64,000 nt of DNA from an uncultured delta proteobacterium. Lineage in GTDB: Bacteria > Desulfobacterota > Desulfobacteria > Desulfobacterales > JAFDCJ01. This document shows, in pieces, positions 14,773 to 60,576 of this stretch. Position 1 is the stretch's first letter. The number at the start of each line of letters is the position of its first letter. Where the stretch lies: NCBI GenBank assembly GCA_963769935.1, contig CAVYNY010000016.1, forward strand, positions 224,001 to 288,000. The letters run 5' to 3'. Under the pieces are notes generated by a model. That model was given only the letters and a program-made list of their open reading frames with translations. It did no database searches and was not told the DNA's origin. The position numbers were made by a program, and so were the translations under genes.

Positions 14773-14889
14773 TTTTCGTTACATCCTGGGATTGATAGCG
14801 GCTGGAAGACTGGGAAGCATGGAGACTGCAAGCTGCTTTAAAGTCTTCTTGGTAGATTCTTTGCATTTTATGCAATCCGCCTTGGGCGG

Positions 14890-15011
14890 ATCACCACGAA
14901 AACACGAAATTTTGAAAGCACGAAATTTATCTAATCATCTTTTCGTGTTTCCGTCCTTTCGTGCTTTTGTGATTAATTTGTCCTTTTTAGTTCCGGCTTG
15001 TCCGGGTTAGG
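14890..15011 (+). repeat. Palindromic CACGAAA/TTTCGTG element plus TTCCGGCTTGTCCGGGTTAGG tail (copy 1)
   Basis: Inverted arms; near-identical copy at 17611-17768. Confidence 0.85.
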
Positions 15012-15057
15012 AACTTCAACTTCAAGGCTTCCCGGCCTTCCAGCCACTGATCCCAAT

Positions 15058-15781: not shown

Positions 15782-16248
15782 GGATAATAATCATCGAAAA
15801 AATTGAATATAATCATATAATTTCAAAAGGTTAACTAATTTTAGGCTACAAGACCTTTGAGATTGATGGAAACGATTCTGAATGATATTTGAGACATTTT
15901 TCAGCAAGGCAGCTGGCGGAACCGATTAAGAAACCTGGCTGGTTGGACCTATTACCGATTGGGAAATGTTTCAATAAAAATTCGAATCAATAGTGTCTCA
16001 CTGAACAATACCATGGAAAGAAAGTAATTCCGGTCCAACAGCTTGAATTTATAAAACTAATTTATCACTTTACTGATTAGTAAAAGACCTGTCAAGATTT
16101 TAATTGAAATGGACAACCATCTGATCTGGCTGGGATAGCCCTAATCCTTGACAATATCCACATAATCGTGATTAATTCAAATCCGCATACGCCGGCAGAA
16201 ACTGACCCATCCGAACCCATAGCCGGCAACCTGAAATGCGGAAACCAT

Positions 16249-16290
16249 AACCCGAAACGCGCAACCCGTAACGCGCAACACGCAACACGA
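16249..16290 (+). repeat. 7-mer tandem arm (AACVCGH)x6 abutting the thiolase RBS
   Basis: aacccga aacgcgc aacccgt aacgcgc aacacgc aacacga; same family as 48420-48456. Confidence 0.75.
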
Positions 16291-16304
16291 AAAAGGAGTT
16301 TCTG

Positions 16305-17555: not shown

Positions 17556-17610
17556 TCAGTCGCGTAGAATCTTAATTGCTATTTCTTTGCAGTTTATGAA
17601 AAAATTTTTT

Positions 17611-17768
17611 ATCACGAAAACACGAAATATAGAAAGCACGAAAATTATCTTTTATTACTTTCGTGTTTTCGCCTGCCCCGTTAAACTTTTTTTTCTCCGT
17701 TTAACCGGGGTCCTTTCGTGCTTTCGTGATTAATTTGTTCTTTCTGGCCTTGGCTTGTCCAGGTTAGG
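17611..17768 (+). repeat. Palindromic CACGAAA element (copy 2) with a nested 39-bp hairpin insertion at 17672-17710
   Basis: Aligns with 14890-15011 apart from the inserted CCTGCCCCGTTAAAC...GTTTAACCGGGG and scattered substitutions. Confidence 0.85.
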
Positions 17769-18524: not shown

Positions 18525-18577
18525 CTTTCGACGGGGAGTTCGTTAATAATATTTTTATGAATTTTCCCAAAAAACCC

Positions 18578-18756
18578 AAAAAACAAGCACCAAATTCCAA
18601 ATAAATTCGAAATTCCAATTACCGAAACGAGTAACGATATACTTTGAGCGTTTTTGATCAGCTTAGGTTATATATTCAATATCAAGTCTTTGTTTTGAAT
18701 TTGCTTTTTTGGTCATTGGGTATTGTTTGTAATTTGAGATTTGTTATTTGTTTTTT
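18578..18756. repeat. Imperfect palindromic element with 7-mer arms (CAAATTC / GAATTTG-like)
   Basis: C/A-rich left arm and complementary G/T-rich right arm. Confidence 0.65.
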
Positions 18757-42499: not shown

Positions 42500-42997
42500 A
42501 TGAATAAGGACATTGAACATAACAATGATGCATCAGCCGAAATCGATTACCTGATGTTAGATTCGATCATCGAAAAAGAATTTAACCAGAACAAAGAAAA
42601 TCTGATCATGATGCTTCAAGCAATTCAAAAGACCTATAATTATCTTCCCCAGCCTGCTATAGCTTATCTGGCCACCAAGATCGGTGTCCCCTACAGCAAA
42701 ATATATGGCGTGGCAACCTTTTACAGCACCTTTAGCCTGGAACCCAGAGGCCGCAACATAATTTCCATCTGTCTGGGAACTGCCTGTCATGTCCGGGGTG
42801 CCGAAAGGATTCATGAAAGAATCATTGAGGCCATTAACGTCTGCGATGGGCAAACGACGGAAGACCGGCGTTTTACACTGGAGTCCGTGCGCTGTATCGG
42901 CTGCTGCAGCCTGGGACCGGTGGTTAAAATCAATGAAGACATGCACGCAAGGCTGGAACCGGATAACGTCAAAAAAGTTCTGGACCAATACGAATAA
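42500..42997 (+). CDS. NuoE/HydC-like [2Fe-2S] subunit
   Basis: VATFYS, CLGTACHVRG and CIGCC motifs. Confidence 0.92.
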   Translation: MNKDIEHNNDASAEIDYLMLDSIIEKEFNQNKENLIMMLQAIQKTYNYLPQPAIAYLATKIGVPYSKIYGVATFYSTFSLEPRGRNIISICLGTACHVRGAERIHERIIEAINVCDGQTTEDRRFTLESVRCIGCCSLGPVVKINEDMHARLEPDNVKKVLDQYE

Positions 42998-43018
42998 AAA
43001 AATTACGAGGCGCAAACC

Positions 43019-44920
43019 ATGAAAATCACGTCTGTTAAGGACTTAGAAAATATACGCCGGGAGCATGGCAAACGACTGTACTGGCCTGATGCCGTTAAGG
43101 TAAACATCGGCATGGCCTCCTGCGGAATTGCTGCCGGAGCCCAGGCATCTTATGAAATAGCCAAAGAGGTGTTCCCGGCCGGCACCGGCGTGCAGATCTG
43201 TCAAACCGGCTGCATCGGTTTCTGTGAAGAAGAGCCCCTGGTTGAAATCCTCGGTTACGGTAAACCCAGAGTAATGTACAAACATATCACCGAAAAAAAG
43301 GTCGCCGATGCGATTAAAGGCTACATGGAAGGTGATTTCAATAAAAAGTGGATTCTCGGCCAGATGCAGGATCCCCGCAATATATTGGAGGACGACATCG
43401 ACAATGCCCTGGCGGGGATGGCACCGGTAGACGGCATCCCTTATTTGGAAGATATACCCTTTTACCGCAAACAGGTGAAAATCGCTCTGCGCAATTGCGG
43501 CTATATTGACCCGGATTCCATTGAAGAATACATTGCCAGAAAAGGCTACCTGGCTTTTCTGAAAGCGCTGCAGGAAATGGATCCCTCCGACATCATCCCC
43601 ATCATTAAAGAATCCGGACTGCGCGGACGCGGAGGCGGAGGTTTCCCTACCGGAATTAAGTGGGCCAGTTGTGCCAAACAAGAGGGGCAGCGCTTCATCA
43701 TCTGCAATGCGGATGAAGGCGACCCGGGTGCATACATGGATCGCAGCATCCTGGAGGGTGATCCCCACAGCGTGCTGGAAGGTATGCTGATTGCCGGGGT
43801 GGCTATCGGTTCCAATCAGGGTTCAATCTATGTGCGCAATGAATATCCGCTGGCCGTCAAGCGGTTGGTCACCGCCATCAAAGAAGCAGAGAAATATGGT
43901 TTGCTGGGTGATGGTATCGCCGGATCGGATTTCAGTTTTCACATTAAGATATCCACGGGGGCCGGCGCCTTTGTGTGCGGCGAGTCCACCGCCCTGATGG
44001 CATCTCTGGAGGGAAACGTTGGCAGACCCCGTGCCAAATATATCCATACGGTTGAAAAAGGATTCCATGACAGCCCGTCAAATCTGAACAATGTCGAAAC
44101 CTACGCCAATGTACCCGCTATTCTTTTAAAAGGGGCCGGATGGTTTGCAGGAATGGGCACCGACCAGAGCAAAGGCACCAAGGCTTTCAGCCTGGTGGGC
44201 AAGGTAAAAAATACAGGCCTGGTGGAAGTGCCGATGGGGATATCTTTGAGAGATATCGTTTTCGAACTGGGCGGCGGCGTGCCCAAGAAGAAAGAATTCA
44301 AAGCGGTCCAAACCGGCGGACCCTCAGGGGGCTGTATTCCTGAGCGATTTCTGGACCTGCCGGTGGATTACCAAAAGTTGAATGAAGTGGGGTCCATCAT
44401 GGGCTCCGGCGGTATGATCGTCATGGATCAGGATACCTGCATGGTGGATGTGGCACGCTATTTCCTGGATTTTCTCAAGGAAGAATCCTGCGGCCAGTGC
44501 AACCCGTGTCGCGAGGGGATCAAGCAGATGCTCGGGATCCTAAATAGGATTTGTGAAGGAAACGGGAAAGAAGGCGATATCGAACTTCTGGAAGAACTTG
44601 GCAGCATGGTGCAAAAATTTTCTTTGTGCGGGTTAGGGACCTCGGCTCCCAATCCGGTTTTGACAACCATCCGTTACTTCAGGGATGAGTATGAATCCCA
44701 TATTTACCAAAAAAAATGTCCGGCCGGTGTCTGTAAGCCGCTGTTTTATTACGAAATTGATGTCGATGCCTGTACCGGATGCGGTGTGTGCGCGCGCAAG
44801 TGCCCGCAGGAGGCGATCAGCGGTGAAAAAAAACAGGCGCACGAGCTGAACCGGGAAAAATGCATAAAGTGCGGCATATGCTATGATGCATGTAAATTCG
44901 ATGCTATTAAAATTCGATAA
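43019..44920 (+). CDS. NuoF/HydB-like NADH-FMN subunit (long form)
   Basis: N-terminal Trx-like Fe-S domain, GRGGGGFPTG, NADEGDPG, GGPSGG, ESCGQCNPCREG and a C-terminal 2x[4Fe-4S] domain. Confidence 0.93.
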   Translation: MKITSVKDLENIRREHGKRLYWPDAVKVNIGMASCGIAAGAQASYEIAKEVFPAGTGVQICQTGCIGFCEEEPLVEILGYGKPRVMYKHITEKKVADAIKGYMEGDFNKKWILGQMQDPRNILEDDIDNALAGMAPVDGIPYLEDIPFYRKQVKIALRNCGYIDPDSIEEYIARKGYLAFLKALQEMDPSDIIPIIKESGLRGRGGGGFPTGIKWASCAKQEGQRFIICNADEGDPGAYMDRSILEGDPHSVLEGMLIAGVAIGSNQGSIYVRNEYPLAVKRLVTAIKEAEKYGLLGDGIAGSDFSFHIKISTGAGAFVCGESTALMASLEGNVGRPRAKYIHTVEKGFHDSPSNLNNVETYANVPAILLKGAGWFAGMGTDQSKGTKAFSLVGKVKNTGLVEVPMGISLRDIVFELGGGVPKKKEFKAVQTGGPSGGCIPERFLDLPVDYQKLNEVGSIMGSGGMIVMDQDTCMVDVARYFLDFLKEESCGQCNPCREGIKQMLGILNRICEGNGKEGDIELLEELGSMVQKFSLCGLGTSAPNPVLTTIRYFRDEYESHIYQKKCPAGVCKPLFYYEIDVDACTGCGVCARKCPQEAISGEKKQAHELNREKCIKCGICYDACKFDAIKIR

Positions 44921-44937
44921 CATGAGGAAAAAGATCA

Positions 44938-47900
44938 ATGGTTACATTTAAACTAAACGGTAAAACCGTCCAGGGTGAAGAAGGCCAATATATCCTCCAG
45001 GTGGCGGAAAAATACAACGTCGACATTCCGACCCTTTGCCACCATAAGGCGCTTGAGCCGGCCGGTATGTGCCGCCTGTGCACGGTAGAGCTTTTTGACG
45101 GCCGCCGCAAACGCTATGTCACTGCCTGCAACTATCCGATATGGGAAGGCATGGAGGTCAGCACCGATTCGGAAGCCGTCCATCAGGGGCGGAAATTAAT
45201 CGTGGAGTTGCTGCTGGCCCGCTGCCCGGAAGTTCCGATCCTGAAAAAATTGGCGGCCCGGTACGGAATCGAAGAATCCCGCTTCCCGAAGGAAAACGAC
45301 ACCTGTATTCTTTGTGGTCTGTGTGTGCGCACCTGCGAAAGAATGGGAGCCAATGCCATCAGTTTAACCGGCCGCGGGGTCGATATGAAAGTGGACACAC
45401 CGTTTCATCTTCAAGCCGATGCCTGTATAGCCTGTGGCGCTTGCGCCACGGTGTGTCCCACCGGACATATTACCCTGGAAACCATCAGGGCAAATGTCAC
45501 CAAGCATGATTTTGAAAAAATCCCCTCCGAATACGAAATGGGATTAAAAGGCCGCAAGCCGGTCTACGTTCCTTATGCCCAGGCGGTTCCCAACACGCCG
45601 GCCATCGATCGAACCAAATGTATTCATTTTAAGACCGGCGGCTGTAAAATCTGCGTCGAATTTTGCGGGGTCGACGCCATTGACCATACCATGCAGGATG
45701 AGATCATCGAGTTGAACGTCGGAGCCATCGTTTTGGCACCCGGCTTCGAGCCGTTCGATCCGTCGAAATTCGACTCCTATAGTTACAGCAAGTACCCAAA
45801 TGTCATCACTTCCATGGAAATGGAACGGATCCTGTCCGCTTCGGGTCCCACCGGCGGACATCTCGTCCGGCCCTCGGATCACAGCGAACCCCAAAAGATC
45901 GCCTGGTTTCAATGCGTCGGCTCGCGCGACCTGAACCGCTGCGACAATTCCTATTGTTCTTCGGTCTGCTGTATGTATGCAATCAAGGAGGCGGTCATTG
46001 CCAAGGAGCATGCCGGCAGCGACCTGGACTGTGCCATCTTCTATATGGACATGCGGACCCATGGCAAGGATTTTGAACGATTTTACGATAGCGCCCGGGA
46101 AAAGCAGGGCGTGCGGTTTATCCGCAGCCGGGTGCATACCATTGAGCCCGTCAACGGCGGCGATGATCTGTCGGTGCGCTATATCACCGAAAGCGGCGAA
46201 TTAGTATCCGAAACCTACAATATGATCGTGCTCTCGGTCGGATTGCAGACATCCCCCGAGGTGGTCGAACTGGCCGATCGGCTGGGGCTTGAGAAGACCA
46301 AGGGCAATTTTTGCAAGACCGATACATTCAATCCGGTGGCAACCTCCCGGAAAGGCATCTACGTTTGCGGCGCCTTTCAAGGACCCAAGGACATTCCGCA
46401 GTCCGTGGTGGACGCCAGTGCCGCCGCAGGGGCCGCCGGCGAAATCCTGAGTACTGCCCGCAACACCGAAACCAAAACCAAGGAAGTCGTACCGGAAACC
46501 AACGTCATCAACGAACGTCCGCGGGTCGGGGTGTTCGTCTGCCGCTGCGGCATCAACATCGCCGGCATTGTCGATGTCCCGTCGGTGGCCGAATATGCCA
46601 AGAGTCTGCCCTATGTGGAGTACGCCAGCGACAACCTGTATACCTGTTCCCAGGACACTCAGGAAGCCATTTCCCAGATCATCAAACAAAAAAACTTGAA
46701 CCGGGTCGTCGTGGCGGCCTGCACGCCGAAAACCCACGAACCCTTGTTCCAGGAAACCCTGATCAATGCCGGCTTGAATAAATATCTGTTTGAAATGGCC
46801 AATATCCGCAACCAGGATTCCTGGGTTCACAAAAACAACCCCGAACTGGCAACCCAAAAGGCCAAGGACCTGGTGCGCATGGCCGTGTCCAAAGTGGCGC
46901 TGCTGCAACCGCTCAAGGAAACCGAGCTTGAAGTCAATCAGGCGGCCATGGTTATCGGCGGCGGCATCGCCGGCATGGCGGCAGCCAAAAACCTGGCCAA
47001 CCAGGGCTATGCAACGCATCTCATCGAACGCAGCGCCCAGCTTGGCGGCCAGGCTTTGAATCTTTATCACACGCCGGCCGGCGAGGACATTCAGCAAAAA
47101 TTGGCTGAACTGATCCAGGAGGTCGAAAAAAATAAAAAAATAACGGTCCATCTGAACACCATGCTTGACCATGTGGACGGTTTTGTCGGCAATTTTACAA
47201 GCACTTTGGCCTGCAACGGCGACAAACAGGATTTGGAACACGGCATTGCCATATTGGCAACCGGTGCTTCGCCCTTGAAACCCGACGAATACAGCTACGG
47301 CCAGGATCCGCGCATCTTAACCGGCCTGGAGCTCGACCGCAGATTCATCGAAAAGGATCCGGATTTAAAGAAACTCAACACCGCCGTATTTATCCAGTGT
47401 GTCGGCTCCCGCGAACCGCAAAGACCGTATTGTTCGAGAGTTTGCTGCACGCATTCAGTGGAAAGCGCCATCCAACTCAAACGGCTAAATCCGGACATGA
47501 ATGTGTTCGTGCTCTATCGCGACCTTCGCACCTATGGCGAACGCGAGTATCTGTACAAGGAGGCCCGCGAGGAAGGTGTCATTTTCATTCGCTACACCCT
47601 TGATCACAAGCCCCGGGTAAAAATTAAAGACGGCAAATTGCGGGTAGCCGCCATCGATCAGGTGATCGGTCGACAGGTTGAGATTGAAACCGATCTTCTA
47701 ACCCTGGCGACGGCGATTATCCCGAACCGGGACGATCGATTGGCCAATTTCTTCAAGGTGCCCCTGAATGATGACGGTTTTTTTGTGGAACGCCACGCCA
47801 AACTCGGCCCGTCGGAATTTGCCACCGACGGCGTATTTCTCTGCGGTCTGGCACATTATCCCAAGCCCATCGATGAATCCATTGCCCAGGGTCAGGCGGC

Positions 47901-48195
47901 GGCATCCCGGGCCATCACCTTGCTGGCCCGTGAAACCGTCCATACCAGCGGCACAATTGCAGCGACGGATCCGGCCTTGTGCAGCCAGTGCGGAGTTTGC
48001 GTGTCGGTCTGCCCGTATTCGGCACCTTCTTTTGTAGAATCCGGCCCCTGGACCGGCCGGGCACAAATCAATCCGGTTTTGTGCAAGGGCTGCGGTCTGT
48101 GCGTAGCCTCCTGCCGCTCGGGTGCCATCCACCTGAAAGGTTTTGACAATGATCAGATCTTCTCGCAGATTTTTGCTTTGAAGGAAGCCGTGTGA
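44938..48195 (+). CDS. hdrA: Fusion of NuoG/HydA-like N-terminal Fe-S domains with the remainder of a tandem-module HdrA
   Basis: PTLCHH..CRLC..TAC and CILCGLCVRTC; then EYEMGL..YAQAVP, two QCVGSR..YCSxVCC motifs, GVFVCRCG, GGGIAG and a C-terminal ferredoxin. Confidence 0.9.
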   Translation: MVTFKLNGKTVQGEEGQYILQVAEKYNVDIPTLCHHKALEPAGMCRLCTVELFDGRRKRYVTACNYPIWEGMEVSTDSEAVHQGRKLIVELLLARCPEVPILKKLAARYGIEESRFPKENDTCILCGLCVRTCERMGANAISLTGRGVDMKVDTPFHLQADACIACGACATVCPTGHITLETIRANVTKHDFEKIPSEYEMGLKGRKPVYVPYAQAVPNTPAIDRTKCIHFKTGGCKICVEFCGVDAIDHTMQDEIIELNVGAIVLAPGFEPFDPSKFDSYSYSKYPNVITSMEMERILSASGPTGGHLVRPSDHSEPQKIAWFQCVGSRDLNRCDNSYCSSVCCMYAIKEAVIAKEHAGSDLDCAIFYMDMRTHGKDFERFYDSAREKQGVRFIRSRVHTIEPVNGGDDLSVRYITESGELVSETYNMIVLSVGLQTSPEVVELADRLGLEKTKGNFCKTDTFNPVATSRKGIYVCGAFQGPKDIPQSVVDASAAAGAAGEILSTARNTETKTKEVVPETNVINERPRVGVFVCRCGINIAGIVDVPSVAEYAKSLPYVEYASDNLYTCSQDTQEAISQIIKQKNLNRVVVAACTPKTHEPLFQETLINAGLNKYLFEMANIRNQDSWVHKNNPELATQKAKDLVRMAVSKVALLQPLKETELEVNQAAMVIGGGIAGMAAAKNLANQGYATHLIERSAQLGGQALNLYHTPAGEDIQQKLAELIQEVEKNKKITVHLNTMLDHVDGFVGNFTSTLACNGDKQDLEHGIAILATGASPLKPDEYSYGQDPRILTGLELDRRFIEKDPDLKKLNTAVFIQCVGSREPQRPYCSRVCCTHSVESAIQLKRLNPDMNVFVLYRDLRTYGEREYLYKEAREEGVIFIRYTLDHKPRVKIKDGKLRVAAIDQVIGRQVEIETDLLTLATAIIPNRDDRLANFFKVPLNDDGFFVERHAKLGPSEFATDGVFLCGLAHYPKPIDESIAQGQAAASRAITLLARETVHTSGTIAATDPALCSQCGVCVSVCPYSAPSFVESGPWTGRAQINPVLCKGCGLCVASCRSGAIHLKGFDNDQIFSQIFALKEAV

Positions 48196-48456
48196 CGAGG
48201 TGCGGGGTAAGCGGTCGCGGGGTTCGAAGTGCGCATATCGTGGTGCAGGGTACGGGTTTCAGGAGGGAATTTAGTAAGGAGAGGGTGTGCAAAGTTACAG
48301 GGACCTGGATATATACCAGCTATCTTATGAATTAGGGAGAAAAATTAACAAGTCTATCCAATACGTCGAAAAAGAATAGAAATAAGCGGGGTAGCGAGTA
48401 GCATAGCCATCGAAATGCTAAACACCGAAACGCGAAACACGCAACTCGCAACGCGA
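48196..48456. mobile_element. Palindromic element with 7-mer arms enclosing a four-helix-bundle gene remnant
   Basis: G-rich 7-mer left arm (48196-48263), complementary AACNCGH right arm (48420-48456), internal remnant ORF. Confidence 0.65.
48287..48385 (+). pseudogene. Internally deleted four-helix-bundle (23S rRNA IVP-family-like) gene
   Basis: TAAGGAG RBS, then [34 protein letters not shown]- and C-terminal family-like motifs joined directly. Confidence 0.7.
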
Positions 48457-48471
48457 AGGAGATTTTTTGAT

Positions 48472-48903
48472 ATGAACGATTGGGAACCTAAAATTGTGGC
48501 TTTTTTGTGCAACTGGTGCAGCTATGGGGCTGCCGATCTTGCCGGTGTCGGCCGAATGGAGTATCCGCCCAATATCCGGGTTATCCGGATACCGTGCACC
48601 GGCCGGATGAGCCCCAAATTCTTTCTGGCCGCCCTGCGGGAAGGTGCAGACGGCGTCTGGGTATCCGGGTGACATCCCGGTGAATGCCATTACCTGGAAG
48701 GTAATTACTACGCTCGCCGCAAATTTGCCCTGTTTAAAAATCTGATGGAACATATGGGAGTCGAACCCGACCGCCTTCAGTTTTCCTGGGTCTCTTCGGC
48801 CGAATCCACCAAGTTTGTCGCCGTCGTCAAAGATGTTACCGACGCGATTAAAGCCCTCGGACCCAATCAAACTTTTTCTAAAATAGAGGCTAAGGTTGCA
48901 TAA
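48472..48903 (+). CDS. flxD: Selenocysteine-containing MvhD/FlxD (143 aa; Sec67 at TGA 48670-48672)
   Basis: [25 protein letters not shown]...WVSSAE; SECIS-like hairpin at 48689-48705. Confidence 0.92.
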
Positions 48904-48904
48904 C

Positions 48905-49852
48905 ATGACTGGTTATATCGATAAAATAAAAGAAGTTTCGGCAAGGCTGCTGAAGGAATGCAAAGTGGATATGGTGATCGGTTTCCGCAAAGGGACCATG
49001 CCCATGATGAACGAGCCTTATTTTGCCAAAACCCAGGAGGATGTCCGGAATCTGGTATGGGACAGCAACTGCGGCATCAATCTGGCAAACTATCTGACCA
49101 ACCGGAAAGAGAAAATCGGCATCGTCGCCAAAGGATGCGATTCGCGCAATATCGTCACCCACATTATCGAGAACAAGATCAAGCGGGAGCAATTGGTCAT
49201 CATCGGCGTACCCTGCAAGGGGATGATCGACAAACGCCGAATCAATGCCATGTTTGACGGCGAAATTACCGCAGTGACCGAAGATGAAGACAATATTAAA
49301 GTCAGCGGCAACGGTTTTGAAAAGGTATTGAACAAGGCGGACGTGCTCCAGCAAAACTGCGCCCTTTGCATTCATCGCAACCCGGTCGTGCACGATGAAC
49401 TGGTCGCCGAACCGGTTGCCGAGCAGCAGGATGTCGATCGCTATGCGGATGTTCGTGAAATCGAGGCCCTGTCGGCCGAGGAAAAAGCCGGATATTTTGA
49501 TGAACTTTTCGCGCCCTGCATCCGTTGCTATGCCTGCCGCAATGCCTGTCCCCTGTGTTACTGCCCGACCTGTTTTGTAGATGAATCCCGCCCCCAGTGG
49601 GTGGGCAAAAGCCAGGATGACACCGACATTAAAACATTTCACTTTCTGAGAGCCTATCACTGTGCCGGCCGGTGTACGGATTGCGGGGCCTGCGAACGGG
49701 CCTGCCCGGTAGGCATCAACATGCGGAAGCTGACCAAAAAGCTGGAAAAAGACTGCTTCGAGCTTTTCAACTGGGAAGCGGGCCTGTCGCTGGAGGTGCG
49801 CCCGCCGCTGGATACCTACAAACCGGATGATCCGGATGAATTTATAAAGTAA
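48905..49852 (+). CDS. flxC: FlxC [4Fe-4S] subunit
   Basis: KGCDSR, CIRCYACRNACPLCYC and CTDCGACERACP; order flxD-C-B-A. Confidence 0.85.
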   Translation: MTGYIDKIKEVSARLLKECKVDMVIGFRKGTMPMMNEPYFAKTQEDVRNLVWDSNCGINLANYLTNRKEKIGIVAKGCDSRNIVTHIIENKIKREQLVIIGVPCKGMIDKRRINAMFDGEITAVTEDEDNIKVSGNGFEKVLNKADVLQQNCALCIHRNPVVHDELVAEPVAEQQDVDRYADVREIEALSAEEKAGYFDELFAPCIRCYACRNACPLCYCPTCFVDESRPQWVGKSQDDTDIKTFHFLRAYHCAGRCTDCGACERACPVGINMRKLTKKLEKDCFELFNWEAGLSLEVRPPLDTYKPDDPDEFIK

Positions 49853-49854
49853 TT

Positions 49855-49944
49855 AGCGTTTCGTTTTTTGTGTTTAGTGCTTGGCAGAGCACTATGACGG
49901 CAATTTCTGCAGAAACAAAACACCAAACACGAAATACCAAACAC
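49855..49944. repeat. Palindromic element with 7-mer arms (GTGTTTN / NAAACAC)
   Basis: Complementary tandem arms between flxC and flxB. Confidence 0.7.
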
Positions 49945-49963
49945 TTCCAAAAAGGTTGGAAAA

Positions 49964-51031: not shown

Positions 51032-51034
51032 AGG

Positions 51035-51160
51035 ATTGAATATTTTAAATTGAATATTGAATATTTAAGGAATTCTTTCAACTTTTATAGGGTTTCTCAA
51101 GAATGACGGAGCGAAGCGGCTTCTACAAATATTCAATTTTCAATATTCATTCTTCAATTT
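51035..51160. repeat. Palindromic element with ATTGAAT/ATTCAAT 7-mer arms
   Basis: Complementary arms between flxB and flxA; related to 39570-39672. Confidence 0.75.
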
Positions 51161-51175
51161 AATTGGGGGGTTAAC

Positions 51176-57383: not shown

Positions 57384-57526
57384 TTCAGAGGTTCCGGGTT
57401 CAGGACAAAAAAGACATTATTCCAGGATTGAGGCAAATAAGCATGCCAGATGCAGTCCAACGGATGAAAGTTGAACCTTGAACCACTTAACCCTTTAACC
57501 CCTGAACCTTTGAACCTTGAACGCCT
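57384..57526. repeat. Palindromic element with GGTTCA / TGAACCYT-like arms
   Basis: Short left arm and about seven 7-8-mer units in the right arm, inside the RND operon. Confidence 0.7.
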
Positions 57527-58796: not shown

Positions 58797-59180
58797 AGAT
58801 GAGAAGGTGAGAAGGTGGGAGGGTAAGAGGGTGAGAAGCTAAGAAAATCAGAAAAGCAGAAGGTCAGACCGTCGGAAGGTCAGAAGGTGGGAGGGTGGGA
58901 AGGTGAGAAGTTGAGAAGATCAGAAAATCAGAAAACAGAAATCAGAAGAGCAGAAAGTCAGACGGTCGGAAGGTGAGAGGGTGAGAAGGTGAGAAGCTGG
59001 GAAGTTGGGAAATCCGATTCACCTCAATCAACCTAATCAACTCAATCAACCCAATAAACTCAATCAACCCAACAAACTCAATAAACTCAATAAACTCAAT
59101 AAACTCAATAAACACAACAAACACAACAAACTTCGGCTCTCCGCAATCTGCAATCATCAATCGAAAAACTCGCAATCCGT
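58797..59180 (+). repeat. Long composite repeat: 8-mer/7-mer purine tract, AAATCCGATTCA, about twelve 9-mers (CTCAATMAA), then GCAATC-type 7-mers
   Basis: Read directly; same junction as 2178-2297. Confidence 0.9.
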
Positions 59181-60091: not shown

Positions 60092-60374
60092 TCAGTAAAA
60101 TGCCTAATCCCGCTTACAGCGGGACTAAGATGCACTAAAATTAAGGAGGTTAATCGTTTTAGATAAGCGAAGGAGATCCCTATTTCAGGATACTTCAGAA
60201 CTAATTCAGCTGGTTTCAGTATAACCGGAAACGAATAATTCCTTGTTTTCGCAGCCGGCACCATACTCCATCCCCGGAGGGGAGTCAAATCTCTTTGACT
60301 TTGAAAGATGATTCCATTAAAGCAAGGCTTCAGGTGTCTGGTGTCAGGTTTCAGCCCAATTGAAAAGAAAAAGA

Positions 60375-60562
60375 GGAATGGATTCTTATTTTAAAGAAAA
60401 TAATTGGACAGGATCAACAGGATCGTTAAGATAATACGGCCTTCGGCCGAAAGGCCCCTCGCCGCAGGCGAAAAAATTCCTGTTAATCCTGCGTGCCAGG
60501 GCGAAGCTTCTGCGAAGACTGGTTAATCCTGTCTAAATAAAAATAAAAATCGAATCCATTCC
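60375..60562. repeat. MITE-like element with 11-bp terminal inverted repeats, 9-mer arms and a nested 31-bp insertion at 60492-60522
   Basis: GGAATGGATTC/GAATCCATTCC termini; ACAGGAT and ATCCTGT arms. Confidence 0.8.
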
Positions 60563-60576
60563 ACTTACCCTCATTG

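Follow-up and report, generated by a model that had tools for sequence, protein, structure and literature searches.

A collapsed four-helix-bundle gene between hdrA and flxD as the remnant of a heptamer-armed, probably selfish cassette

What fills the gap between two neighboring operon genes of an uncultured delta proteobacterium, and how did it come to be there? In the window, by which we mean the whole 64,000-nt stretch of DNA analysed, a 277-nt spacer runs from the stop codon of hdrA (TGA ending at 48195) to the ATG of flxD (48472). The upstream gene (44938-48195, + strand) encodes an HdrA-type flavoprotein of 1085 aa whose top NCBIfam matches are HdrA2 and HdrA, both under their cut-offs. 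The downstream gene (48472-48903, + strand) is of the flxD/mvhD type and matches PF02662. It has one in-frame TGA at codon 67 (48670-48672) within G*HPGECH, and reading this codon as selenocysteine gives a full-length PF02662 match. FlxD is backed by this match; the flx names of the other downstream genes follow the initial annotation. From 42500 to 48195 the window contains NuoE/NuoF-like genes and then hdrA, which encodes an N-terminal HoxU/NuoG-like domain; flxDCBA-type genes follow. The initial annotation had proposed that the spacer holds a four-helix-bundle (4HB) gene with a deleted middle inside a repeat-armed palindrome. This copy is an in-frame 267-bp deletion remnant, and on balance we judge it probable that its intact form is a selfish cassette that inserts by copying between a stop codon and the ribosome-binding site that follows.

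The whole remnant lies in the spacer, on the + strand. Its 5' arm (48196-48265) is formed by about nine decayed G-rich 7-mers with the consensus CGNGTTD, and its first base is the first base after the hdrA stop, which directly abuts it. A Shine-Dalgarno (SD)-like TAAGGAG, predicted from sequence, lies at 48275-48281, 5 nt ahead of the GTG start of the collapsed gene (48287-48385). This gene has 30 codons, being open without a stop from 48287 to 48376 and followed by TAG (48377-48379), AAA, and TAA (48383-48385), and its GC content is 33% compared to 55% for hdrA. A 3' untranslated linker (48386-48419) leads to the 3' arm (48420-48455), which contains about five C-rich 7-mers of the AACNCG type, the reverse complement of the 5' unit, and ends at the AAGGAG of flxD (48456-48461). 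The letters of this mini-ORF, its putative ribosome-binding site, and its complementary arms were confirmed. The 5' arm tiled with the family 7-mer with a score of 30.4, and none of 2000 shuffles was as good for either this arm or the 3' arm. TRF run on the spacer detected the 3' arm only (48426-48457). The description as a repeat-armed palindrome stands for the tiling of both arms and fails for their pairing. Folding the whole spacer as RNA gave z = -0.20, with 72 of 200 shuffles equal or better, and the arm-to-arm duplex gave z = -1.3, with 23 of 200 equal or better. Taken as a palindrome, the window copy is decayed and its arms pair no better than chance.

Searching 61 genomes at the DNA level, we found both flanks at 30 loci, of which one is the window, 19 belong to congeners, and 10 come from other families. 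Five of the 19 congeners (G018, G017, G003, G021, and G012) have an intact gene at the hdrA-flxD junction, an ORF of 120-121 aa, confirming that the mini-ORF derives from a longer 4HB gene. All five intact alleles passed PF05635 along the full model (78-90 bits, cut-off 33.8), and the three tested against TIGR02436 passed as well (83-85 bits, cut-off 24). An intact allele compared with 2GSC gave a weak sequence match (E 0.007). The same arms as in the window flank these genes, as had been suggested. Both 7-mer arms are kept in four of the five, with a duplex z of -3.4 to -7.5 and none of 200 shuffles as good in each case. In G003 (L017:1730-2089, - strand) the 3' arm is lost and the 4HB ORF is fused in frame to flxD, giving 186 aa open up to the TGA. 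The dN/dS ratio between intact genes at this junction was 0.03-0.11 in 14 of 15 pairs, the remaining pair being saturated; judged from these codon comparisons, the intact gene is under purifying selection.

Comparison with the intact alleles locates the deletion. The collapsed gene consists of codons 1-16 fused in frame with codons 106-121 of a 121-aa parent, and the 267 bp missing lie between two copies of ATGAATTAG, both visible in intact alleles. The breakpoint falls at (Y/D)EL codons as annotated, and the microhomology is this 9-mer (48327-48335, + strand), not 10 nt from 48326. The codon for W120 of the parent reads TAG in the window copy; a near-identical strain has G at 48378, bearing out the idea that the TAG is a decayed TGG. 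The linker is homologous to those of the intact alleles. The two halves of the gene share 34-38 of 48 nt and up to 52 of 63 nt with intact alleles, and a DNA profile built from 28 relatives matches both (E 3.9e-5 and 9e-5). At E<=10 the 30-aa peptide by itself found neither a Pfam nor an NCBIfam model, and a PF05635 scan of the genome did not pick up the collapsed gene. Its membership of PF05635/TIGR02436 is by descent. The peptide is likely without function and the remnant a dead gene.

Other congeners contain further states of the same junction, so that full, collapsed, and gene-less alleles are all found, as a comparison of spacers had been expected to reveal. Besides the window, two further congeners have broken alleles, each with its own breakpoint. 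There is a separate deletion of the 4HB gene in G005, and other repeats stand in place of its 5' half in G010. The 5' arm alone is left in G013 and G039. A palindrome of a second arm family (TTGATTAG/AATAAACC type) without a gene fills the junction in eight congeners, in one of them shrunk to 35 nt, and a third arm family (GATACTG/CATCCAG) occupies it in three congeners and in G052. At five loci from other families the spacer is 15-61 nt. By eye, the collapses in L013 and L144, which affect different junctions in different genomes, apparently used the same CTTGAA(A)TTT-type microhomology.

Allelic variation was also seen within the species. We compared contigs from four sequencing runs over 47600-49000 and from four over 48300-48560; these are unphased contigs taken from the assembly graphs of three or four studies, with 30 letters visible per replaced part. 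Their flanks are 98-99.6% identical to the window, whereas those of congeners in flxD are 83-89% identical. The window's own allele (a) occurs in DNA runs X6 and X7. Allele b (X1, depth 10.4) matches the window over the first 11 bases of the spacer and, with three differences, over 48327-48485, and 5 of 17 comparable bases differ in its 5' part. It joins DLEIY to LEKYDELGRK, a distinct in-frame collapse, and has TGG where the window has TAG; this sister-strain contig retains the 3' copy of ATGAATTAG preceded by its own upstream letters. In allele c, the major allele, about 125 other letters replace 48180-48455 (X1, depth 58.6; X2, depth 13.7; right end also in DNA run X3). Its CATCCAG-type heptamers end flush with the AAGGAG at 48456, the ribosome site of flxD; the switch occurs at this SD and flxD is then 99% identical to that of the window. 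RNA splicing was considered for the 276-nt skip in RNA runs and rejected, given the approximately 125 other letters there and the same end in a DNA run. The RNA-run contigs over the remnant do not demonstrate its transcription or processing. In the window's genome there are 14 matches to the 3' arm of allele c, the best with one mismatch and none identifiable as a donor, and no arm of this type ends at AAGGAG. That near-identical strains have different inserts at hdrA-flxD points to a cassette, likely selfish and lacking a transposase, that is exchanged in and out between operon genes. This within-species allele swap is what the junction adds.

The arms of the window belong to a large population of repeats. 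A profile of the arm unit found 48 arms at 43 sites in the genome, mostly at gene ends, and none in a shuffled genome. Counting all families, the genome has 1354 arrays with a period of 7-8, compared to 4 after shuffling, and these form 153 inverted pairs (none after shuffling) and 56 direct pairs. That the repeats arose by local slippage and the mini-ORF resembles a 4HB gene by chance agrees with the lack of a profile match for the peptide and with the weak fold of the window spacer. These genome-wide counts, the DNA-profile match to both halves, and above all the intact orthologous alleles and sister-strain contigs, which refute this explanation, leave it with next to no probability.

The compact coding cargo seen within the 153 inverted pairs is 4HB. 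Seven PF05635 genes score above the cut-off in the genome, each with arrays of a different word, and by eye six of these are inverted. An automatic test found arrays on both sides of five of the seven, compared to 9 of 3000 random intervals. At one of the seven, on C27, the both-side arrays within 350 nt run in the same direction, and a weak eighth match (C10) has no arrays. The window's own 4HB subfamily has no intact gene in the assembly, which is 96.7% complete; the best match is at 51%. Several other arrays were noted in the window. A lone 3' arm of the window's 7-mer family (16228-16293) runs up to the SD of a thiolase-like gene. A nested palindrome at 14797-15048 has an outer 27-nt inverted pair around a CACGAAA-type pair resembling that at 17608-17733. 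Other 7-9-mer families form more tandem arrays, some of them end-to-end, at 2180-2296, 18566-18756, 57471-57522, 58800-59132, and 60330-60566.

Arm and DNA profiles identified another collapsed member of the window's 4HB subfamily at G000:C19:65458-65883 (L137, - strand), frameshifted, with both arms and with a linker homologous to that of the window. Its orthologous junction has collapsed genes in G012 and G017 (tblastn) and in G009 (by eye), an intact gene at none of 17 readable loci, and other arm families at some. The proposal that empty palindromes are gene-less relatives of an armed 4HB unit is supported by this second copy and three more at the orthologous site, a support that covers the window's arm family and not every empty palindrome. 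The tail of the C19 copy is nearest to a copy from the hdrA-flxD site (score 49; the other copies at the C19 junction score 9-10), which points to copying between sites.

We considered whether the junction instead reflects one old insertion, after which ordinary homologous recombination alone carried the entire spacer segment between lineages. In that case the 4HB protein would be a tolerated or useful nucleic-acid-binding regulator with the arms as its sites, and neither would serve mobility. The strong purifying selection on the gene fits such a regulator. The six 4HB genes of the hdrA-flxD junction form one clade (97/93), and an AU test did not reject the main clade of the flank tree (p 0.14), rejecting only a weaker pair (p 0.038). 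This junction-specific clade and the AU result count in favor of a single old insertion. At hdrA-flxD and flxC-flxB, the allele classes also stay homologous as far as the start codon when distant congeners are compared. In the flank-gene tree, gene-bearing and second-family alleles pair as sisters within three clades (support 100, 99, and 94), and permutation gave no co-conversion of flanking codons with allele class (p 0.2-0.9), which counts against recombination of whole segments. So does the sister-strain allele that switches at the SD with flxD beyond it 99% identical, compared to 83-89% in congeners. The repeated loss of the gene, the derivation of the second-site copy from the hdrA-flxD lineage, and the recurrence of this protein with its arms beside unrelated operon genes in four phyla (below) also speak against this explanation. 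We therefore regard this explanation as unlikely, while granting it an appreciable minority chance. Synonymous divergence of the 4HB genes at the junction is as deep as or deeper than that of the flanks, giving no sign of a recent burst. Their synonymous distances did not correlate with those of the flanks (rho -0.22, p 0.42), a result that is uninformative since the 15 pairs are non-independent and near saturation. Repeat-armed palindromes are also present at the flxC-flxB (49853-49963) and flxB-flxA (51032-51175) junctions of the window. At flxC-flxB in 18 congeners, other arm families interleave likewise, and for these junctions congeners have several allele classes that conflict with the flank tree.

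Relatives of the gene occur widely. The best 80 of 105 span Desulfobacterota, Nitrospirota, Planctomycetota, Chloroflexota, and Bacteroidota, and those with 65-74% protein identity come from the first four of these phyla. The latter group adjoins unrelated genes, for example DprA/TopA, GcvP, ArgJ, thiolase, CheR, and GT2; 17 of its 29 flank proteins could be named and none is HdrA or FlpD. One relative (L118) is on a contig titled Bifidobacterium breve amid otherwise Bacteroidota matches, possibly a binning error. A unit of the form arm-4HB gene-arm between operon genes had been predicted, and by a strict measure that asks for three or more in-register units in each arm it was found at 49 of 82 relative loci, in many unrelated operons. 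The 4HB gene is co-directional with the upstream ORF at 69 of 73 loci, and an arm begins at most 10 nt past the upstream stop at 45 of 60 measurable loci (9 were unmeasurable). Similarity of the arm word correlated with that of the protein across 95 loci (Mantel rho 0.58, 0 of 999 permutations), a result inflated by kinship among loci and including six low-rank rows placed in a host group by hand. At 65% protein identity or above, arm similarity was 0.59 within phyla and 0.58 between them; below 35% identity it was 0.11-0.12. The arm sequence tracks the protein, not the host phylum.

The inverted ends and many gene-less copies resemble a conventional non-autonomous transposon (a MITE or mobile insertion cassette) that an unrelated IS transposase mobilizes in trans, with the 4HB gene as passive cargo. 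The genome has 11 Y1 transposase matches that might supply such an activity, and IS elements lie near paired repeat sites in Geobacter (PMC2700814). We found no transposase, integrase, or reverse transcriptase (RT) within the cassette unit, and both-side arrays flank none of the 11 Y1 transposases and at most one of nine RT loci in the genome. This search for an armed mover covered Y1 and RT loci. In two places, G000:C11:462316-463941 and C17:221555-223181, an RT gene lies at most 700 nt from a Y1 transposase gene, and four RT matches score nearly alike. There was no target duplication at the 49 loci tested, where the mean shared word was 4.35 compared to 4.12 after shuffling (28 of 500 shuffles as high) and reached at least 7 at two loci; old copies could have lost such a duplication. 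The arms vary freely in length and phase, unlike fixed terminal repeats, and passive cargo would not require the arm word to track the protein. We consider transposition by an unrelated enzyme improbable.

REP/REPIN-RAYT systems pair gene-less extragenic palindromes with a protein that is flanked by the same repeats. The cassette differs from these in that its matched protein is not a Y1 transposase and its arms are tandem arrays, and no cognate RAYT was seen in the genome, where none of 11 PF01797 matches has arrays within 900 nt. Avd of diversity-generating retroelements and Xcc0516 are reported to have a homologous four-helix-bundle fold (PMC10053308). In such retroelements an RT, a template, and a variable repeat are expected next to an Avd-like gene, whereas the neighbors of the cassette are hdrA and flx genes, and none of the genome's 10 RT matches is on the window's contig.

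Inverted heptamers are already in print. Intergenic arrays of GGGAATC in Xanthomonas and GGGGA(C/T)T in Nostoc place the G-rich strand within 50 bp after stops and the C-rich strand before starts, and are mostly transcribed. Xanthomonas has 70-75 inverted pairs per genome, and the arrays were interpreted as quadruplexes at genetically stable loci (PMC4692102). These pairs have the geometry of the cassette with another repeat word and no cargo gene named; the main text mentions neither xcc0516, S23, nor a helix bundle (PMC4692102). The main text on Geobacter metallireducens describes several families of three to five tandem 7/8-mers in inverted pairs with a variable spacer, interpreted as putative IHF/HU sites (PMC2700814). 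This is a cassette-like geometry in a deltaproteobacterium without cargo, and that text makes no mention of S23 and no tie to a 4HB gene.

The closest likeness is to the intervening sequence (IVS) in helix 45 of the 23S rRNA of Coxiella burnetii. There, one S23p/PF05635 gene lies between terminal inverted repeats, a variable number of tandem heptamers (GACAGAT) precedes the start codon, and the gene decays by deletion, of 176 bp in one strain. The IVS was termed selfish, and a role in mobility had been proposed earlier for its ORF (PMC4990558). The anatomy is alike, down to the heptamers and the gene decay, and in the four intact alleles with both arms the inverted repeats are likewise predicted to pair as an RNA stem around an S23p ORF. 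The IVS sits in rRNA; in contrast, the cassette sits between protein genes, from the hdrA stop to the flxD SD, has many families per genome, and has intact alleles under purifying selection. The unit falls outside IVS, REP-RAYT, diversity-generating retroelements and, on duplication, MITEs, yet it is built like an IVS. PMC4679880, PMC5524665, and PMC8700078 added no link between arms and a 4HB gene, and our literature search, which covered main texts and few subscription journals, turned up no publication that connects intergenic arms with such a gene. Its parts are known separately in print, as ORF-bearing 23S rRNA intervening sequences and as unexplained inverted heptamer pairs.

Returning to the selfish cassette, we infer its mobility from its distribution; no transposase, target duplication, or flank co-conversion was found, and the mechanism of movement set out here is a proposal. 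Counting against the cassette, no pair of near-identical full copies was found at different sites. By homology, the 4HB protein is a predicted nucleic-acid-binding pentamer like Xcc0516 and Avd. It may recognise its own repeat word and promote the copying of any unit bearing its arms. Because the unit has no nuclease, the strand chemistry would be supplied by the host or by a trans-acting enzyme. On the operon mRNA the insert might be looped out by pairing of the arms, or RNase III might cut there as in rRNA intervening sequences, which are excised without ligation; either would leave the operon readable and the insert tolerated. Once a copy is fixed, its gene could be lost by microhomology deletion, leaving an empty palindrome that might later be overwritten by another arm family. 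Repeated microhomology deletion, occupation of the stop-to-SD gap, and turnover of arm families are what the alleles display.

A broader proposal, which we offer tentatively and consider rather doubtful, is that these units are a new class of transposase-free mobile DNA in which each 4HB lineage reads and spreads its own word of 7-9 bases, targets the stop-to-SD gaps of operons, and has its families overwrite one another within species. The hdrA-flxD junction brings together intact, independently collapsed, one-armed, and replaced stages, plus alleles segregating in one species. A single genome supplies matched protein-repeat pairs together with mismatched controls, making binding and mobility directly testable. 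The structure of PF05635 has been solved with no function assigned, and inverted heptamer arrays have been reported unexplained in several bacteria. If true, the proposal would give PF05635 a function, and would give the heptamer palindromes of many bacteria and the ORF-bearing rRNA intervening sequences an origin.
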